A stretch of 64,000 bases of DNA from an uncultured Candidatus Saccharibacteria bacterium (GCA_964360035.1 CAYHUJ010000001.1:2176-66175); one strand, 5' to 3'; shown: positions 6,452 to 55,439, counted from the stretch's first letter. Notes: generated by a model not told the origin, from the letters alone. Program-made: numbers and translations.

Positions 6452-7033
6452 TCAATCTTTGATTTTTTTGATGCCGACCCAGATAAGGGCGGCGAGCGAA
6501 AATCCCAGAATTACAAAGCGCAGATAATCGTCCATCTGCGACCAGTATTTCGCCGTTCCGACAAGAATCGCCAAAAGTCCTCCAAAAGTGAACCCCAAAG
6601 AAACCGCTTCGGCCGTCGTTAAAATGATTCCGCCGGCGAGAGCGGCTACTCCGATGATCACCCAAACAAGAAAAACGTTTCTTCGGTAAAGATTATCGGC
6701 GGCTTCAAATTCCTTTCCGCACCGGTAGGCGGTGTCGCACCATCCATTCTGCCGGGGATAAAGAGTGGGAGCCGGCGCCGCTTCCGGATAGGCGGGAACG
6801 GCTTTCAGGGGCACCGGTTCGCCGAATTCCCGGTTGTCGTTCCATCGCTCGCCAGCCTCTTCGCATGATTCTTGATCGGTATGCTGACGAGCCGCTTTTT
6901 CTCCGCAAAAGTCGCCCCAGACGGGCTGTTTTTTATAAAGCGTGTCTATGCCGTAATTGACGAAAAGATTAAATACGACGACTATGGCCAGAACGAGGGC
7001 CGTTTTTTTGAAATTTATTTGCGGCAGTTGCAT
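6452..7033 (-). CDS. Hypothetical membrane protein
   Basis: N-terminal TM segment plus two C-terminal TM segments; Cys/Trp-rich middle region. Confidence 0.5.
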   Translation of the reverse strand: MQLPQINFKKTALVLAIVVVFNLFVNYGIDTLYKKQPVWGDFCGEKAARQHTDQESCEEAGERWNDNREFGEPVPLKAVPAYPEAAPAPTLYPRQNGWCDTAYRCGKEFEAADNLYRRNVFLVWVIIGVAALAGGIILTTAEAVSLGFTFGGLLAILVGTAKYWSQMDDYLRFVILGFSLAALIWVGIKKIKD

Positions 7034-7034
7034 A

Positions 7035-7691
7035 TTATTTTTCTTCTATTGAAACGGATGTTAATTTTACGGGATTGACCGGCGTCGATTTTTCGCCGAG
7101 AGAGTTCGTTTTAACCGGCGCCTGCGCTATGTTATCAACGGCTTCCATTCCGCTGACGACCCGTCCGAAAATTACGTAGCTTTTCGGCAGGGGATAATCC
7201 CGGTGCATTATGAAAAACTGGCTGCCGTTCGTGTTCGGACCGGCGTTCGCCATCGCCACGATACCGCGGGAATAATCGCGGGTTATTTTTTCATCGGCAA
7301 AGCGGTAACCCGGACCGCCGGTGCCGTCTCCTTTCGGATCGCCGCCCTGAATCATGAAGCCGCTGATGGCTCGGTGGAAAATCGTGCCGTCGTAAAATCC
7401 TTGTCGCGCCAGAAAAACAAAATTATTTGCCGCTATGGGTGTTTCGGCGGAGAATAATTCTATTTTCGCGTCGCCCTCGGAGGTTTTTAAGGTCGCGAAA
7501 TAGCGCTTGTCGGCGTCAATTTCCATTTTCGGCGGCTGGTTCCACTGCATATTTGTTGTTTCTATTAATTGGTTATGGCTTGACGCGCCGTTCGCCGGCG
7601 CGCTGTTTTTTGGAGCAAGATAAATTTTTGATCCCGCTATCGCGGCGGCGGTTATCAAGGCGATTGCGGCGTATTTTATCCATCCGTTCAT
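7035..7691 (-). CDS. ppiB: Peptidyl-prolyl cis-trans isomerase, cyclophilin type, secreted
   Basis: FHRAISGFMIQGGDP and GSQFFI cyclophilin motifs, with an N-terminal signal/TM segment. Confidence 0.85.
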   Translation of the reverse strand: MNGWIKYAAIALITAAAIAGSKIYLAPKNSAPANGASSHNQLIETTNMQWNQPPKMEIDADKRYFATLKTSEGDAKIELFSAETPIAANNFVFLARQGFYDGTIFHRAISGFMIQGGDPKGDGTGGPGYRFADEKITRDYSRGIVAMANAGPNTNGSQFFIMHRDYPLPKSYVIFGRVVSGMEAVDNIAQAPVKTNSLGEKSTPVNPVKLTSVSIEEK

Positions 7692-8008
7692 TTTCCGCGC
7701 GTTTTTTCCGTATCATCGGCGGAAGGGTAAACGTCCCCGTTTTTCTTGATTTGTTCGTCTTCGTAGGGAGCGGCGAAGCGGCGGTAAAATTCCTCCCCGA
7801 TGTTTTTAAAAACGCCGCTGATAAGGGCGATCGCCCAGTAGCGTTTTTCCGGAATAGTTTGAAGCGCGAGCTTCGTACAGGCGTAATTTAACAAGCCGGC
7901 GAACGTTTTTTCGTCCCCCGTTTCTTTCGCCACGGCGTTTATTTCTTCGGCGAGTTTGGCGATGCGCGGATCCAGGCGATTTCGGTTGTTTTGGCTGATG
8001 TAAGGCAT
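7688..8008 (-). CDS. Hypothetical protein (106 aa)
   Basis: ORF with a 4-nt overlap onto ppiB, which suggests an operon. No motif recognised. Confidence 0.5.
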   Translation of the reverse strand: MPYISQNNRNRLDPRIAKLAEEINAVAKETGDEKTFAGLLNYACTKLALQTIPEKRYWAIALISGVFKNIGEEFYRRFAAPYEDEQIKKNGDVYPSADDTEKTRGK

Positions 8009-8091
8009 AATTTACGGAGATAAGTTATCCACAGTCGTTATTTTACTTGAATTTTATTTTTTGGTAAAGTTAAGCGGTTAATAATAAAAAG

Positions 8092-8150
8092 CTCCGCGTG
8101 TGAGGCGCGGGGTTTTTTGTTTTTGGCGGCGGTCGCATTCCGCCGCCGCA
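8092..8150. other. Two GC hairpins immediately left of the REP/RAYT unit (CCGCG-N7-CGCGG plus a T-run; GCGGCGG-N-CCGCCGC)
   Basis: Inverted repeats read directly at 8094-8124 and 8126-8150. No gene ends here on either strand, so they are not an ordinary gene terminator. They may belong to the mobile-element end. Confidence 0.3.
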
Positions 8151-8154
8151 TTCT

Positions 8155-8183
8155 AATCTTCGGACGTCGGACGTCCGAAGATT
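8155..8183. repeat. REP-A: 29-bp palindromic element AATCTTCGGACGTCGGACGTCCGAAGATT
   Basis: Perfect 14-bp arms around a central G. Contains the TCGGACGTCCGA core with an AatII site (GACGTC). Inverted copy of REP-C. Confidence 0.8.
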
Positions 8184-8208
8184 CTTGAATTGTGGTATCA
8201 TTACTTTT

Positions 8209-8898
8209 ATGGAAATTTATCATGTTCTTGACAGGGGAGTTGATAAAAGAAAAATATTTTTAGACAAAGAAGATTATTTTCGTTTTATTCACGATTTATT
8301 TGAATTTAACGATAAAGAAAATGCCGATCTCGCTTCCTATGTCTTTAATAAGCAATATTCGGACGTCCGACGTCCGAATATTGAAATTGGAAGGACTGAT
8401 CGCAAACCGAGGAAATTATTGGTGAAAATACACGCTTTTTGTTTAATGTCGAACCATTACCATTTATTACTTACGCCGGCCGTAGAAAACGGGATCGCTC
8501 TTTTTATGAAAAAAATCAACGGCGGATATGTAAAGTATTTTAATGAAAAATATGAAAGAAAAGGGACCTTATTTGAAGGGAAATATAAAAGAATTATAAT
8601 TAAAAATGAGGCGCATTTTATTCATCTGCCTTATTATATTCATTTAAACCCTCTTGATTTGGCGGCGCCGGAGTGGCGAGAGCGGAAAATTAAAAATTAT
8701 AAAAAAGCGATAAATTTTTTGGAATCTTATCGTTGGAGTAGTTACCTTGACTACATCGGCAAGAAAAACTTTCCGTCCGTTACCCAAAGAGAGTTTTTGA
8801 TGAATTTCTTTGAAAGTCCTAAACAATACAAAGAAAATATGATAAAGTATTTAGAGGAATTAGGTTTAGAAGAAATTAAAGATGTTTATTTGGAATAA
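8209..8898 (+). CDS. REP-associated tyrosine transposase (RAYT) / IS200-like Y1 HuH transposase
   Basis: N-terminal YHV.DRGVDKRKIFLDKEDY, the HuH motif SNHYHLLL, and the catalytic-Tyr region RKGTLFEGKYKRII. The ATG at 8209 (MEIYHV...) fits the family N-terminus better than the TTG at 8185. Confidence 0.75.
   Translation: MEIYHVLDRGVDKRKIFLDKEDYFRFIHDLFEFNDKENADLASYVFNKQYSDVRRPNIEIGRTDRKPRKLLVKIHAFCLMSNHYHLLLTPAVENGIALFMKKINGGYVKYFNEKYERKGTLFEGKYKRIIIKNEAHFIHLPYYIHLNPLDLAAPEWRERKIKNYKKAINFLESYRWSSYLDYIGKKNFPSVTQREFLMNFFESPKQYKENMIKYLEELGLEEIKDVYLE
8354..8382. repeat. REP-B: AATATTCGGACGTCCGACGTCCGAATATT, in-frame inside the RAYT gene (encodes YSDVRRPNI)
   Basis: Perfect 14-bp arms. Same core as REP-A/C but the flanks are AATATT instead of AATCTT. 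Confidence 0.8.
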
Positions 8899-11560
8899 AA
8901 GCAAAATAAATCTTCGAATGTTCAATCTTCGGACGTCCGACGTCCGAAGATTGGGGGTGGTGGTTGTTGCGACGCTTGTTTTTATTTTTTATTCCGGCGA
9001 AGTTTCCGCCGCTACGCGTACTTGGGACGGCGGGGGAGCCGATAACAACTGGTCAACGGACGCCAACTGGTCTGGTGATCGGGCCCCGTCTCTCAACGAC
9101 GATGTAGTCTTTGACGGCACTTCGGTGAAGAATTCGGCAATGGACAGCGGGTTGACAATCCTAAGCTTCAATGCCAGCTCCACTTACACCGGAGCGTTGA
9201 GTATCGCCAATGGAAACACCTTGACGGTAACCGGCAACTGGACATATAACGCCGCCAATTTTGACGCCGGCACATCCACGATAAAATTTACCGGCAACAC
9301 TGCTACTTTCACTCCCGGCGCTGTCAATTACTATAATCTTGAAGTGGCAAAACCTAGCAGTGGCTCCGACCTCAATATTTCCGGCACCGCCACCACTACC
9401 AATGATTTAATTATCAGCGCCGCCAACGATGACACCAATAACATCAACACCGGCACCGTCAATGTGGGCCGCAACGTCAGCATTACCAACGCTAATTTCG
9501 GAGGCGGCACGGCAACGGTGAACATGAACGGCTCCGGCAGTCAAAGCGTTTCGTCAAGCGGCGGCTGGCTACCTAATTTTTCCGTGAACAAGTCAGCCGG
9601 CACTCTTAGTTTGATTGGTACTGTTGTAATCGGAGGAAACTACACTCACACCGCCGGCACCGTTGACGCCGGCACTTCCACCCTGAAGTTTGTTGGCGGT
9701 ACCACTACTTTCACTCCCGGCGCTGTCAATTACTATAATCTTGAAGTGGCAAAACCTAGCAGTGGCTCCGACCTCAATATTTCCGGCACCGCCACCACTA
9801 CCAATGATTTAATTATCAGCGCCGCCAACGATGACACCAATAACATCAACACCGGCACCGTCAATGTGGGCCGCAACGTCAGCATTACCAACGCTAATTT
9901 CGGAGGCGGCACGGCAACGGTGAACATGAACGGCTCCGGCAGTCAAAGCGTTTCGTCAAGCGGCGGCTGGCTACCTAATTTTTCCGTGAACAAGTCAGCT
10001 GGCTCCACCACTATTGATAGCAATGTACGGGTGGGCGGGACATTGACGGTTACCGCCGGCGAGCTGCGCCACAACGCTTATACTCTACAAATTGACGGCG
10101 GAACGACGATTTCCTCCGGCGGAACGTTTTCCGATTACGCGACCGCTTCCAGCACGATTAAATTCGGTTCCACGATCACGAACAATGGAACGTTAATTTT
10201 GAACGGCGGAGGAACAAGTTGCGGCGACTTTGACTATGTTCTATTGCGTTCCACCGCCGACGGCACCCAGCGTTCCTGGTCCGGTTCCGGAACCTTCAAC
10301 ATCCAGGATGCCGACCTGAAAGACATGGGAGCAACCAGTGGTACCGTAACAGTTCGCAGCGGCACGAACTCCGGCAATAACGGCGGTTCGTGGACTTTCA
10401 ACTCCAACTGTCTTCCTTCCGCTTCCTTTGACAACGATTTTTCTTCCTGGAGCTCCGGCAACGCTACCGTCAATTACAAACTGATTGACCCCAATTCCGA
10501 CGCGTCCAATATCTCTCAAACGGCCGATTCAGGGATGGAATATTCCGCCGACGGCTCAACTTATTCGGACGCGACGCAGGGAACGGGAGGGGATGGAATG
10601 ACCAGCCTTTCTTCATCCGCCTCGCCCGGAACGTCTCATTCTTTCGCCTGGGCCAGCGCAACCGACCTGCCGAACACTGAAGATCTAACCGTCTATCTGC
10701 GCATTCGTCCCAATGACGGCAGTGAAAACGCTTCCGACTGGGCGACCTCCTCCGCTTTCGCGATTGACAACGTCGCCCCATCTTCCGTCGGCGCCCCGAC
10801 TTTCGGAACAATCACCTCTTCTTCCGTTGAAATCGTCAAGCCGACAGCTGTTACGGAAAACGGCTCCGGCCTCAATACCTGGCAGGCGAGAAGAGATTCG
10901 GCAACTGTCCTTTCCGCCGTCGCCACCACCACGGCTTCCGTCTCCGATTCTTCTTTGTCGGCGAATACCCAATATGCCTATGACGTCCGGTTCGCCGATT
11001 ACGCCGCCAACGCTTCCGCTTACGGGACGTCCGCTTCCAAATACACCCTAGCTCCGACTCCGGCTAATCTGGCCGCCGTCGCGGCAAGAATTTCCATCAC
11101 TCTTTCCGTTGACCAATTCACCAACGATACCGCCGGCTCGTCCGGATACTACTTCGTCAATTCCACCGCCTCCACCACCTCCGGCTGGATCCAGGCGAAC
11201 TTCTGGACCGACACCGGCTTGACCTGCGGCGTTTCCTATTCTTACACGGTCAAACACAGAAACGGCGACGGAACGGAAACGTCAACCGTTTCTCTTGACG
11301 CTTCAGCGTCCGCCTGCCAGTCGGAAACGGCCGCCCGGGTGTCTTACGCGATATCCCCGCTGAGAATTTACGACGCGCCAAAGCCGGAGAAAGTTTTGCC
11401 TATTCCCGCTTCGGAAGTTTATCGGGACAAAGCGACGCGGATCGCCGAGCTGCAAACGCAAATCCGGCAGCTGCAAGCGCGACTTCTGGATCTTTACCGC
11501 TTCCTGCTTCAGGCGTTGATTAAAGAGCTGGAGGAAAGATCGGGACGTATAAATTTTTGA
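8882..11560 (+). CDS. Large secreted surface protein/adhesin: signal peptide, autotransporter-associated beta-strand (PATR-like) motif, tandem beta-rich repeats, FN3-like domains, C-terminal coiled coil
   Basis: MFNLRTSDVRRLGVVVVATLVFIFYSGEVSAA looks like a signal peptide. TRTWDGGGADNNWSTDANWSGDRAPSLNDDVVFDG matches the PATR consensus. T/S/G/N-rich repeats are followed by FN3-like segments. Alternative start ATG at 8918. Confidence 0.7.
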   Translation: MFIWNKSKINLRMFNLRTSDVRRLGVVVVATLVFIFYSGEVSAATRTWDGGGADNNWSTDANWSGDRAPSLNDDVVFDGTSVKNSAMDSGLTILSFNASSTYTGALSIANGNTLTVTGNWTYNAANFDAGTSTIKFTGNTATFTPGAVNYYNLEVAKPSSGSDLNISGTATTTNDLIISAANDDTNNINTGTVNVGRNVSITNANFGGGTATVNMNGSGSQSVSSSGGWLPNFSVNKSAGTLSLIGTVVIGGNYTHTAGTVDAGTSTLKFVGGTTTFTPGAVNYYNLEVAKPSSGSDLNISGTATTTNDLIISAANDDTNNINTGTVNVGRNVSITNANFGGGTATVNMNGSGSQSVSSSGGWLPNFSVNKSAGSTTIDSNVRVGGTLTVTAGELRHNAYTLQIDGGTTISSGGTFSDYATASSTIKFGSTITNNGTLILNGGGTSCGDFDYVLLRSTADGTQRSWSGSGTFNIQDADLKDMGATSGTVTVRSGTNSGNNGGSWTFNSNCLPSASFDNDFSSWSSGNATVNYKLIDPNSDASNISQTADSGMEYSADGSTYSDATQGTGGDGMTSLSSSASPGTSHSFAWASATDLPNTEDLTVYLRIRPNDGSENASDWATSSAFAIDNVAPSSVGAPTFGTITSSSVEIVKPTAVTENGSGLNTWQARRDSATVLSAVATTTASVSDSSLSANTQYAYDVRFADYAANASAYGTSASKYTLAPTPANLAAVAARISITLSVDQFTNDTAGSSGYYFVNSTASTTSGWIQANFWTDTGLTCGVSYSYTVKHRNGDGTETSTVSLDASASACQSETAARVSYAISPLRIYDAPKPEKVLPIPASEVYRDKATRIAELQTQIRQLQARLLDLYRFLLQALIKELEERSGRINF
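8924..8952. repeat. REP-C: AATCTTCGGACGTCCGACGTCCGAAGATT, inside the 5-prime end of the surface-protein ORF (encodes NLRTSDVRRL)
   Basis: Exact reverse complement of REP-A. Confidence 0.8.
9262..10065. repeat. Tandem duplication with a 402-bp period; cores 9303-9597 and 9705-9999 are identical (295 bp)
   Basis: The identical 64-aa antisense ORFs at 9331..9525 and 9733..9927 in the ORF track are offset by 402 nt. The protein repeats a roughly 134-aa unit. Confidence 0.85.
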
Positions 11561-54653: not shown

Positions 54654-55439
54654 TTATATTTTCTTTTTAAACGGCTTCGTGCCCGCCGCCGCGGCGATTT
54701 TCATGAACTCCGGCGGTTTCAAGCTGGCGCCGCCGACCAGCGCGCCGTCAATTTCCGGACGGTTGATAAAATCGCCGGCGTTTTTCCCGTTGACGGAGCC
54801 GCCGTACAGCACTTTGACGTCCGACATCCGACATTCAACCATTAGCCATTTTTTTATAAATTTCGCCATTTCCACGGCGTCGGCGGGGGTATCCGGCGTT
54901 CCCGTTCCGATAGCCCAAACCGGTTCGTAAGCAATAATAATATCCGACGTCCGACATCCAACATTTGACATTTGACGCTTGACATCCGATAGATTTTTTT
55001 CCAGCTGACTTTTTACAAACTTCTCCACTGCTTTTTTGCCGCGGCGGCGGATCGGCAAACCCTCGCCGACGCATAAAATCACTTTCAATCCCGCTTTCAG
55101 CGCCGCCAAAACTTTTTTGTTTATCATTTCGTCCGTTTCTCCCAAAAAACGGCGGCGTTCCGAGTGGCCGATGATGGCGTACTCGGCTCCTGAACTCCGC
55201 AGCATCTCCGCGGAAATTTCTCCGGTATAAGCCCCGTTGTTTTCCCAAAAAACGTCTTGAGCGCCGAGTTTAACGCCCGTTTTTTTCAGCAGGACGGCAA
55301 TTTTTTCCAAACAAACGAAAGGCGGGCAAATGACGATTTCAGCTCCGCGCGGCTTCGCCGCCGCGAGCTTTTTCACCGCCGCTTTCCAATCCGCCGCCGG
55401 ACAATTCATTTTCCAGTTGGCAACAAGCAATTTCCCCAT
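54654..55439 (-). CDS. tpiA: Triosephosphate isomerase, with REP-derived in-frame segments
   Basis: ANWKMN, IGHSERR, AYEPVWAIGTG and YGGSV motifs. It contains SDVKRQMSNVGCRTSD and ECRMSDV, both encoded by REP-like DNA. Confidence 0.85.
   Translation of the reverse strand: MGKLLVANWKMNCPAADWKAAVKKLAAAKPRGAEIVICPPFVCLEKIAVLLKKTGVKLGAQDVFWENNGAYTGEISAEMLRSSGAEYAIIGHSERRRFLGETDEMINKKVLAALKAGLKVILCVGEGLPIRRRGKKAVEKFVKSQLEKNLSDVKRQMSNVGCRTSDIIIAYEPVWAIGTGTPDTPADAVEMAKFIKKWLMVECRMSDVKVLYGGSVNGKNAGDFINRPEIDGALVGGASLKPPEFMKIAAAAGTKPFKKKI
54816..54836. repeat. Degenerate REP-like sequence GACGTCCGACATCCGACATTC inside tpiA (encodes ECRMSDV)
   Basis: Shares GACGTCCGACATCC with the copy at 54941 and the CGGACGTCCG core with REP-A/B/C. 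Confidence 0.6.
54941..54990. repeat. Composite degenerate REP-like insertion inside tpiA (ATCCGACGTCCGACATCC...GACATTTGACATTTGACGCTTGACATCCGAT)
   Basis: It encodes SDVKRQMSNVGCRTSD. That is about 6 residues longer than the corresponding loop in canonical TPIs (recalled E. coli and B. subtilis sequences). Confidence 0.6.

Follow-up and report, generated by a model that had tools for sequence, protein, structure and literature searches.

We observed that, in a 64,000-nucleotide (nt) stretch of DNA from an uncultured Candidatus Saccharibacteria bacterium (GCA_964360035.1, CAYHUJ010000001.1:2176-66175; hereafter the window), a gene for a REP-associated tyrosine transposase (RAYT) at 8209-8898 is bracketed by two copies of a perfect palindrome resembling repetitive extragenic palindromes (REPs), and that a third copy lies in frame within its coding sequence. 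On sequence evidence, this unit is probably a REPtron-type unit from a Patescibacteria-specific RAYT (TnpAREP) clade, of class 2 and like subclass 2.1, whose enzyme probably mobilises the palindromes. An earlier sequence-only reading of the window had already proposed a REPtron with a RAYT-type gene and cognate palindromes. That proposal is supported here by a bracket that recurs in homologues, palindromes that co-vary with the protein, a Y---NP motif, a RAYT model that fits better than the IS200 model, fixed contexts, and a palindrome core that is dispersed elsewhere.

Direct reading placed the upstream palindrome, REP-A, at 8155-8183 (aatcttcggacgtcGgacgtccgaagatt; centre G at 8169), ending 25 nt 5′ of the ATG. 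The downstream palindrome, REP-C, lies at 8924-8952 (aatcttcggacgtcCgacgtccgaagatt; centre C at 8938), 24 nt 3′ of the stop codon, and extends to 31 nt (8923-8953) if an outer C/G pair is counted. Each is a 14+1+14 palindrome and the two are exact reverse complements of one another, as the sequence-only reading had stated. Because the arms are perfect, their "inverted" orientation amounts to one base: on the same strand, REP-A and REP-C differ solely at the centre (G8169 versus C8938). Direct reading and a core search also revealed a third full copy that the earlier reading had overlooked. This 31-nt palindrome, REP-B (8353-8383, caatattcggacgtccgacgtccgaatattg; centre C at 8368), is in frame and encodes QYSDVRRPNIE (Q49-YSDVRRPNI-E59), in a loop between helix A and the strand preceding the HuH motif. 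It is one compensatory pair apart from REP-A and REP-C (AATATT..AATATT versus AATCTT..AAGATT). A search of the 64-kb window for the 19-nt core, allowing up to three mismatches, gave eight matches at five sites (both strands counted) against 0.08 expected, and 0 of 100 shuffles attained eight matches. As single-stranded DNA (ssDNA), REP-A forms a hairpin of 13 base pairs (bp), and the stretches with REP-B and REP-C fold at -15 to -16 kcal/mol (z = -6.3 and -5.3).

Natural variants of the locus were also seen. A Hainich strain variant (L007) has a C at the position equivalent to 8169, the REP-A centre, and its three palindrome copies are therefore identical in reading. Separately, two variants from the same aquifer population (L005 and L006) carry a G-to-T change at 8931 that disrupts the REP-C stem. 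N-gaps at REP-C in L002 and L004 were set aside as scaffolding artefacts and not counted as variants. Directly 5′ of REP-C, at 8906-8922, the sequence AAATCTTCGAATGTTC echoes the outer arm of the palindrome (AATCTTCG) and may be the stump of another copy.

The gene (8209-8898, plus strand) encodes 229 amino acids (aa) plus a stop codon and was assigned as a RAYT-type Y1 HuH endonuclease gene by Pfam, NCBIfam and fold matches. The open reading frame (ORF) carries HYHLLL and RKGTLFEGKYKR, and residues 71-145 match Pfam Y1_Tnp (PF01797) at 33.7 bits against a threshold of 23, in agreement with the sequence-only reading of a Y1/HuH transposase gene. Among 20 aligned family members, the RAYT model matched all 20 (best E 2e-13) and was the best model for every one. 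The IS200 model matched six of them weakly (best E 0.005), and the NCBIfam IS200 model gave no match to the window protein at E up to 10. The HuH motif, N82-H83-Y84-H85 (8452-8463, plus strand), is invariant in the alignment of 20 homologues and aligns with the HuH motif of E. coli RayT. In the Y motif, Y143-I-H-L-N-P (8635-8652, plus strand), Y143, I144, H145 and N147 are likewise invariant. Since Y143 stands opposite Y115 of E. coli RayT in a profile alignment, the catalytic tyrosine is placed in YIHLNP, and not in the GKYKR stretch quoted earlier. The wider set of 80 translated sequences (79 uninterrupted metagenome homologues and the window protein) kept NH[YFV]H without exception and Y..-.NP in 78 cases.

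The protein is predicted to be a single-domain Y1 HuH endonuclease, with H83 and H85 binding the metal and Y143 acting as the nucleophile, and it ends in an RWSS tail. Its AlphaFold model is of moderate confidence, with a predicted local distance difference test (pLDDT) score of 59 overall, 70-87 in the core and below 50 at residues 40-65, the loop that contains the palindrome-encoded peptide. Foldseek matched the core to ISDra2 TnpA, IS608 TnpA and E. coli TnpAREP (4er8), with E values of 4e-4 to 2e-3 and a probability of 1.00. As both RAYT and IS200 structures are matched, the fold search does not discriminate between them, and neither does a profile search of the PDB by sequence, which gave weak ISDra2 matches only.

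The same architecture was observed across related loci. The family comprises 4,949 relatives, and all matches bearing a source name are from Patescibacteria. We compared 80 metagenome loci with 43-69% identity, sought hairpins around each gene, and based bracket counts on the 70 loci for which both flanks could be read. At 55 of these 70, palindromes that match each other stand on either side of the gene, the upstream copy mostly 20-75 bp before the start and the downstream copy mostly within ~60 bp after the stop. An extra copy matching the flank palindrome was present at aa 38-68 in 44 loci, and seven loci have a copy at a second internal site, seen in a sub-clade, just after the Y motif (aa 135-170).

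The palindrome sequence itself varies widely among loci (for example ACGAGGTTGAACCTCGT, TGGAAGTCGGACTTCCA and CACGGGTTGAACCCGTG). The idea of a restriction site (GACGTC is an AatII site) was dropped because the sequence changes from locus to locus. Over 21 nt, identity averages 94% among the three copies of a locus, compared to 51% between loci, and for 24 of 35 loci the internal copy was matched by no other locus's upstream copy as well as by its own. We counted 51 compensatory double changes between same-locus copies, all of which preserve the palindromy; the AATATT/AATCTT pair of the window is among them. Loci with more similar proteins (compared with the loop masked) also have more similar palindromes (Spearman 0.39 between the two identities, p = 4e-23). 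As far as sequences can tell, this co-variation is the co-evolution expected for an enzyme and its cognate REP.

Across loci, the half-site reads AA-n-n-T-n-n-n-G-A-n-r-T-y about a single centre base. When half-sites were aligned on the centre, A14, A13, T10, G6, A5 and T2 were conserved, and equally so in untranslated flank copies and in internal copies. Because GA is equally conserved in the untranslated flanks, the Asp/Glu of the loop is a by-product of constraint at the DNA level.

The palindrome is also dispersed beyond the RAYT genes. In 12 of the 80 loci, extra copies are found at a distance of over 700 bp from the gene, and REPIN-like doublets occur. We scanned genome contigs for the 17-nt core of the window's palindrome, and the resulting dispersal counts are lower bounds. 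There were at least 120 matches; of those listed, many are chance matches in high-GC genomes and none is on the source contig. Among the matches listed, the core was present in many Patescibacteria lineages, including Saccharibacteria, Uhrbacteria, Paceibacterota, Nomurabacteria, Azambacteria and Kaiserbacteria, and the outer palindromic arms around this common core are genome-specific. One Uhrbacteria metagenome-assembled genome (MAG) has the core at six loci or more (at least 12 copies). In Paceibacterota RS_16_29 it occupies at least eight loci (at least 10 copies, three at the gene and at least seven on other loci), and the RAYT gene of this genome has the same layout of upstream, internal and downstream copies (L130 and L033). 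One Saccharibacteria MAG carries a 31-mer identical to REP-C.

Many of these copies are in frame within other genes. The 17-nt core was found in frame in rpoB (L055 1415-1453, a doublet), ileS (L059 5888) and leuS (L051 6870/6898), at further sites in L076 (3109), L084 (274) and L075 (4449-5315), and inside a thioredoxin-reductase-like gene and a gatA-like amidase gene. The in-frame copies use all three reading phases (SDVRRP, GRRTSE and RTSDVR), some of them as inverted doublets. The sequence-only reading had described REP copies scattered through the window; outside the gene locus we found only two degenerate remnants, both in tpiA (54654-55439, minus strand). One lies at 54813-54837 (minus strand; in frame, …ECRMSDVK…) with three mismatches to the 19-nt core, and the other is a REP-like heptamer run at 54940-54990 (minus strand; in frame, …LSDVKRQMSNVGCRTSDI…). 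They have the 14-mer GACGTCCGACATCC in common and fall in two loops of triose-phosphate isomerase, whose TIM domain aligned over its full length. Independently of the palindromes, we noted that the ileS gene of L059 (3142-6744) has a histidine-phosphatase domain (His_Phos_1) inserted in its catalytic domain, at residues 542-708.

We compared the unit with known systems. Y---NP is the signature of class 2 RAYTs, whereas IS200 transposases have Y---Q (Y[IV]ENQ) and ~150 aa (PMC6006769). Within class 2, subclass 2.1 (Bertels group 1) is described by NH[YF]H, FQ or W[EQ], Y[IV]HLNP, a median of ~238 aa and an SS-motif tail (PMC6006769, Quentin et al. 2018). In our set, 77 of 80 sequences have NHYH or NHFH, 69 of 80 have RWS[SN], and FQ or FE is present in 52 of the 54 in which that motif was matched; the Y motif most often reads YIHLNP, and the window protein has 229 aa. 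The subclass 2.1 assignment is thus one of motifs matched to a published table, not of position in a tree. The unit resembles subclass 2.1 (TIRYTs, forming TIRtrons, after their terminal inverted repeats, TIRs) in its key motifs, length, SS-motif tail and seemingly low copy number, but differs in its short, perfect REP-like flanks, which are also dispersed, in the lack of GGGGWSAS near the gene and in the copy inside the ORF. In the subclass 2.1 survey we found neither Patescibacteria nor Parcubacteria nor candidate phyla mentioned.

With the REPtrons of E. coli, Stenotrophomonas and Marinomonas (groups 2 and 3; Quentin subclasses 2.2 and 2.5) the unit shares a seemingly single-copy Y1 HuH gene, Y---NP, a bracket of cognate palindromes, co-evolution of palindrome and protein and, in relatives, dispersed copies and doublets; in the populations covered, the gene gave no sign of hopping. 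For the internal copy, the sole published case that we found is subclass 2.4 (Bertels group 4; Cyanobacteria and Bacteroidetes), in which an in-frame REP lies within tnpAREP, in a peripheral loop between HuH and Y, and the REPs have a "double foot". That subclass differs in its motifs (NH[IFV]H, WQ and YIxNNP) and in REPs that carry GT[AG]G, and the internal sites here are elsewhere, the main one before HuH (aa 49-59) and the second after the Y motif.

The palindromic elements of Rickettsia were also considered. Ogata and colleagues reportedly described these in Science in 2000 as ~100-150 bp long and in frame in essential protein-coding genes. We know of no dedicated enzyme for them. Like them and like intragenic REPs (PMC3733652), the palindromes described here are tolerated in frame, in rpoB, ileS, leuS, a gatA-like amidase gene and tpiA, but they are shorter (25-35 bp) and have a cognate RAYT. 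Our literature search, made in a limited collection, gave no paper that treats Patescibacteria REPs or RAYTs. While REPtrons are known, the present form, with an internal copy, no GT[AG]G tag and subclass 2.1 motifs, is undescribed in the literature searched.

A number of findings weigh against a REPtron, and several of them set the unit apart from its proteobacterial counterparts. Instead of a GT[AG]G foot, the palindrome here has perfect, "double-footed" symmetry with AT-rich outer arms. GT[AG]G was found at the hairpin foot in 3 of 69 flank copies and beside neither REP-A nor REP-C, which sets these palindromes apart from canonical GTAG REPs. At 229 aa, with its RWSS tail, the protein is longer; it has NHYH, F-E(Q) and YIHLNP, and scores 34.5 bits with the NCBIfam RAYT model (NF047646, REP_Tyr_transpos), under the equivalog cut-off of 80. 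Copy number also seems low, as no further full palindrome copy occurs in the remaining 63 kb of the window, and one copy is inside the gene. The "canonical" organisation proposed in the sequence-only reading was therefore not upheld: the tag is missing, the motifs are of subclass 2.1 and not of the E. coli type, and the cut-off is missed. Surveys, in addition, report no REP-like sequences beside subclass 2.1 genes and describe long TIRs there, often with GGGGWSAS (PMC6006769, PMC3733652), and the placement of a REPtron in this subclass consequently rests on motif matching.

Three further points concern the history of the locus. Homologues with 72-75% identity, a comparison between species, are surrounded by unrelated genes. 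In L233, the closest syntenic relative, whose DUF6899 neighbour is 85% identical, the RAYT gene is absent. Finally, the GC content of the RAYT gene is 32%, compared to 51-55% in the neighbouring genes, a gap of 19 points in a genome of roughly 50% GC. Taken together, these observations allow for occasional movement of the whole unit, which is atypical for a domesticated RAYT.

The same three points would favour a different explanation, in which the segment from REP-A to REP-C is itself mobile, as an IS200-like or "TIRtron" unit, and the palindromes are the ends that move the gene. RAYT genes are, moreover, AT-richer than their flanks in 58 of 59 loci (by a mean of 7 points), and genes of subclass 2.1 have been described with flanking TIRs, some of them self-complementary. 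We nevertheless consider this explanation unlikely. Each of three exact protein variants (P0001, P0058 and P0112) has a single context, on 14-21 contigs, and tblastn found one gene copy in the window. Across the 59 loci, the GC content of the RAYT gene tracks that of its flanks (r = 0.76), which suggests long residence. Palindromes are also dispersed on their own, as solos and doublets, with no accompanying gene. The Y motif is Y---NP and not the Y---Q of IS200, no tnpB is found near the gene, and no GGGGWSAS motif is present between 8000 and 9100.

The locus L233 is also less clear-cut than its lack of a RAYT gene implies. Its gene order is a VTT-domain gene, 450 bp, DUF6899 and a PPIase, with neither the RAYT gene nor the adjacent 880-aa gene of the window. 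The indel takes in this second gene as well, which has a host-like GC content, and therefore does not amount to a clean insertion of the unit; L233 does not define the limits of the unit. A search for empty sites by means of the DUF6899 neighbour gave two other relatives, both non-syntenic, and a synteny search of the loci in hand found no shared neighbour genes. We read these data as a gene that is fixed and single-copy within populations and is gained or lost over longer times. A phage origin was considered and dropped: no contig of the viral collections had the 21-nt palindrome, and these gave only one distant (28%) protein relative. Plasmid relatives have at most 42% identity, and less than 30% where they span most of the protein, and were uninformative. 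At the corresponding site of L233 (1361-1723), we observed a segment of ~360 bp with inverted repeats (AAGGGTATTCATACC / GGTATGAATACCCTT) at its borders and direct repeats in its interior, possibly a miniature inverted-repeat element.

The palindromes could also be primarily cis-regulatory, with one acting as an operator near the promoter, one as a roadblock within the gene or a hairpin in the mRNA, and one as a terminator, with autoregulation by the bound protein, and the dispersed copies would then be incidental. Their positions relative to the gene are constant whatever the palindrome sequence (mostly 20-75 bp upstream, in the loop at aa 44-58 and mostly within ~60 bp downstream), and compensatory changes maintain the palindromy of each copy. 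REP-A also lies directly upstream of a possible -10 box, and by reading we saw no Shine-Dalgarno-like run 5′ of the ATG, which would fit such a role. As a primary function, however, we judge this quite improbable. The core is found many times away from RAYT genes, and its dispersal inside rpoB, ileS and leuS cannot be accounted for by the regulation of one gene. REPIN-like doublets exist, and REP-C is not followed by a T-run. A cis-regulatory role is compatible with a REPtron and does not exclude it.

An ordinary autonomous insertion sequence of the IS200/IS605 family with tnpA only is largely refuted already and barely credible: the Pfam domain is named "Transposase IS200 like", the top PDB sequence and fold matches are to ISDra2 and IS608 TnpA, and the unit shares with IS200/IS605 TnpA (subclass 1.1) the Y1 HuH fold, hairpins bordering the coding sequence and a presumed ssDNA chemistry, but the protein has the class 2 motif YIHLNP instead of Y[IV]ENQ, 229 aa with an RWSS tail instead of ~150 aa and no match to the IS200 model, and the gene is a single copy in a fixed context, without many identical copies or a tnpB partner, and with the same perfect palindrome at both ends in place of distinct imperfect left and right hairpins.

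For the REPtron that we favour, E. coli TnpAREP and the TnpA proteins of IS200/IS605 suggest how the enzyme might act. The substrate would most likely be an ssDNA hairpin formed by the 29-31-nt palindrome. By analogy, the enzyme would bind this hairpin, cut beside it and rejoin the DNA by means of Y143 and the metal bound at HuH (PMC8266576), and such cutting and rejoining could seed or remove palindrome copies. Binding and cleavage of the hairpin, and spread of the palindrome by the enzyme, are thus what we infer from these related systems. What keeps the three local copies alike may be conversion, replacement mediated by the enzyme, or selection for binding (in autoregulation at promoter-proximal and intragenic sites, for instance).

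The internal copy has its own history. REP-B would be tolerated because it is placed in a poorly predicted and probably flexible loop. This loop has a similar length in loci with a recognisable copy (28.0 aa) and in those without one (25.3 aa), and several loci scored as having no internal copy still encode REP-like loop peptides. In L138, L140 and L175 such peptides are present and no matching flank palindrome was found. Given the similar loop length and the residual peptides, we think that the internal copy is ancestral to the clade. Internal copies also occur in three clade-specific codon phases and at the second insertion site, which leaves room for recurrent local insertion. A broader proposal, which we put forward tentatively and with more doubt than conviction, is that the internal palindrome is an ancestral functional part of the clade, either a self-binding site for dosage control or a master copy, protected by selection, that seeds the copies of the genome. 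Enzyme-mediated replacement or conversion would actively keep it matched to the flanks, and these elements would routinely colonise loops of essential Patescibacteria proteins in frame. The similar loop length, the residual peptides, the equal conservation of GA in untranslated flanks, and the 94% identity within loci against 51% between them speak for this proposal.

The surroundings of the unit contain further features. The sequence-only reading had noted two GC hairpins just left of REP-A, and both exist. The first (8086-8118) folds, has A and T runs on either side and resembles a terminator on both strands. A near-identical hairpin (AAAAAACCCCGCGCCTTACTCGCGGAGCTTTCTATT) lies upstream of the DUF6899 gene in L233, and since it is kept there without a RAYT gene, we regard it as an intergenic feature of the host outside the unit. 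The second (8125-8147, GGCGGCGG / CCGCCGCC) also folds and lies between the first and REP-A. It had no counterpart in L233 in a comparison by eye, homologous loci not having been searched for one, and its membership of the unit is uncertain. An Rfam scan of 7000-10000 gave nothing close to any gathering score.

On the other side, REP-C and the predicted 5′ end of the downstream gene (ATG at 8918, MFNLRTSDVRRLG...) overlap, and in several assemblies gene callers put the start at the equivalent position. This downstream gene of 880 aa (8918-11560) is predicted to start at REP-C and continues with a hydrophobic stretch, and the charged beginning of a signal peptide may come from REP-C. A direct repeat with a spacing of 402 bp (9233-9934) lies in the gene, whose length varies among assemblies of the same population (880, 867 and 733 aa).

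There is as yet no settled account of how domesticated transposases spread their REPs (PMC8266576), and the REP/RAYT systems studied best are a handful of proteobacterial ones. The clade described here, to which this gene of an ultra-small groundwater bacterium belongs, is rich in natural pairs of enzyme and substrate, as the cognate palindrome can be read beside the gene, and often inside it, in most of the 80 loci. It is therefore a ready data set for a recognition code that relates RAYT residues to hairpin positions. The finding would extend REPtrons to the Patescibacteria and, by motif, to the largest of the RAYT subclasses, until now regarded as devoid of REPs. In organisms whose genomes are very small, it also places short palindromes in frame within rpoB and genes for aminoacyl-tRNA synthetases, and it allows peptides such as SDVRRP, GRRTSE and RTSDVR to be recognised as REP-derived when Patescibacteria proteins are annotated.

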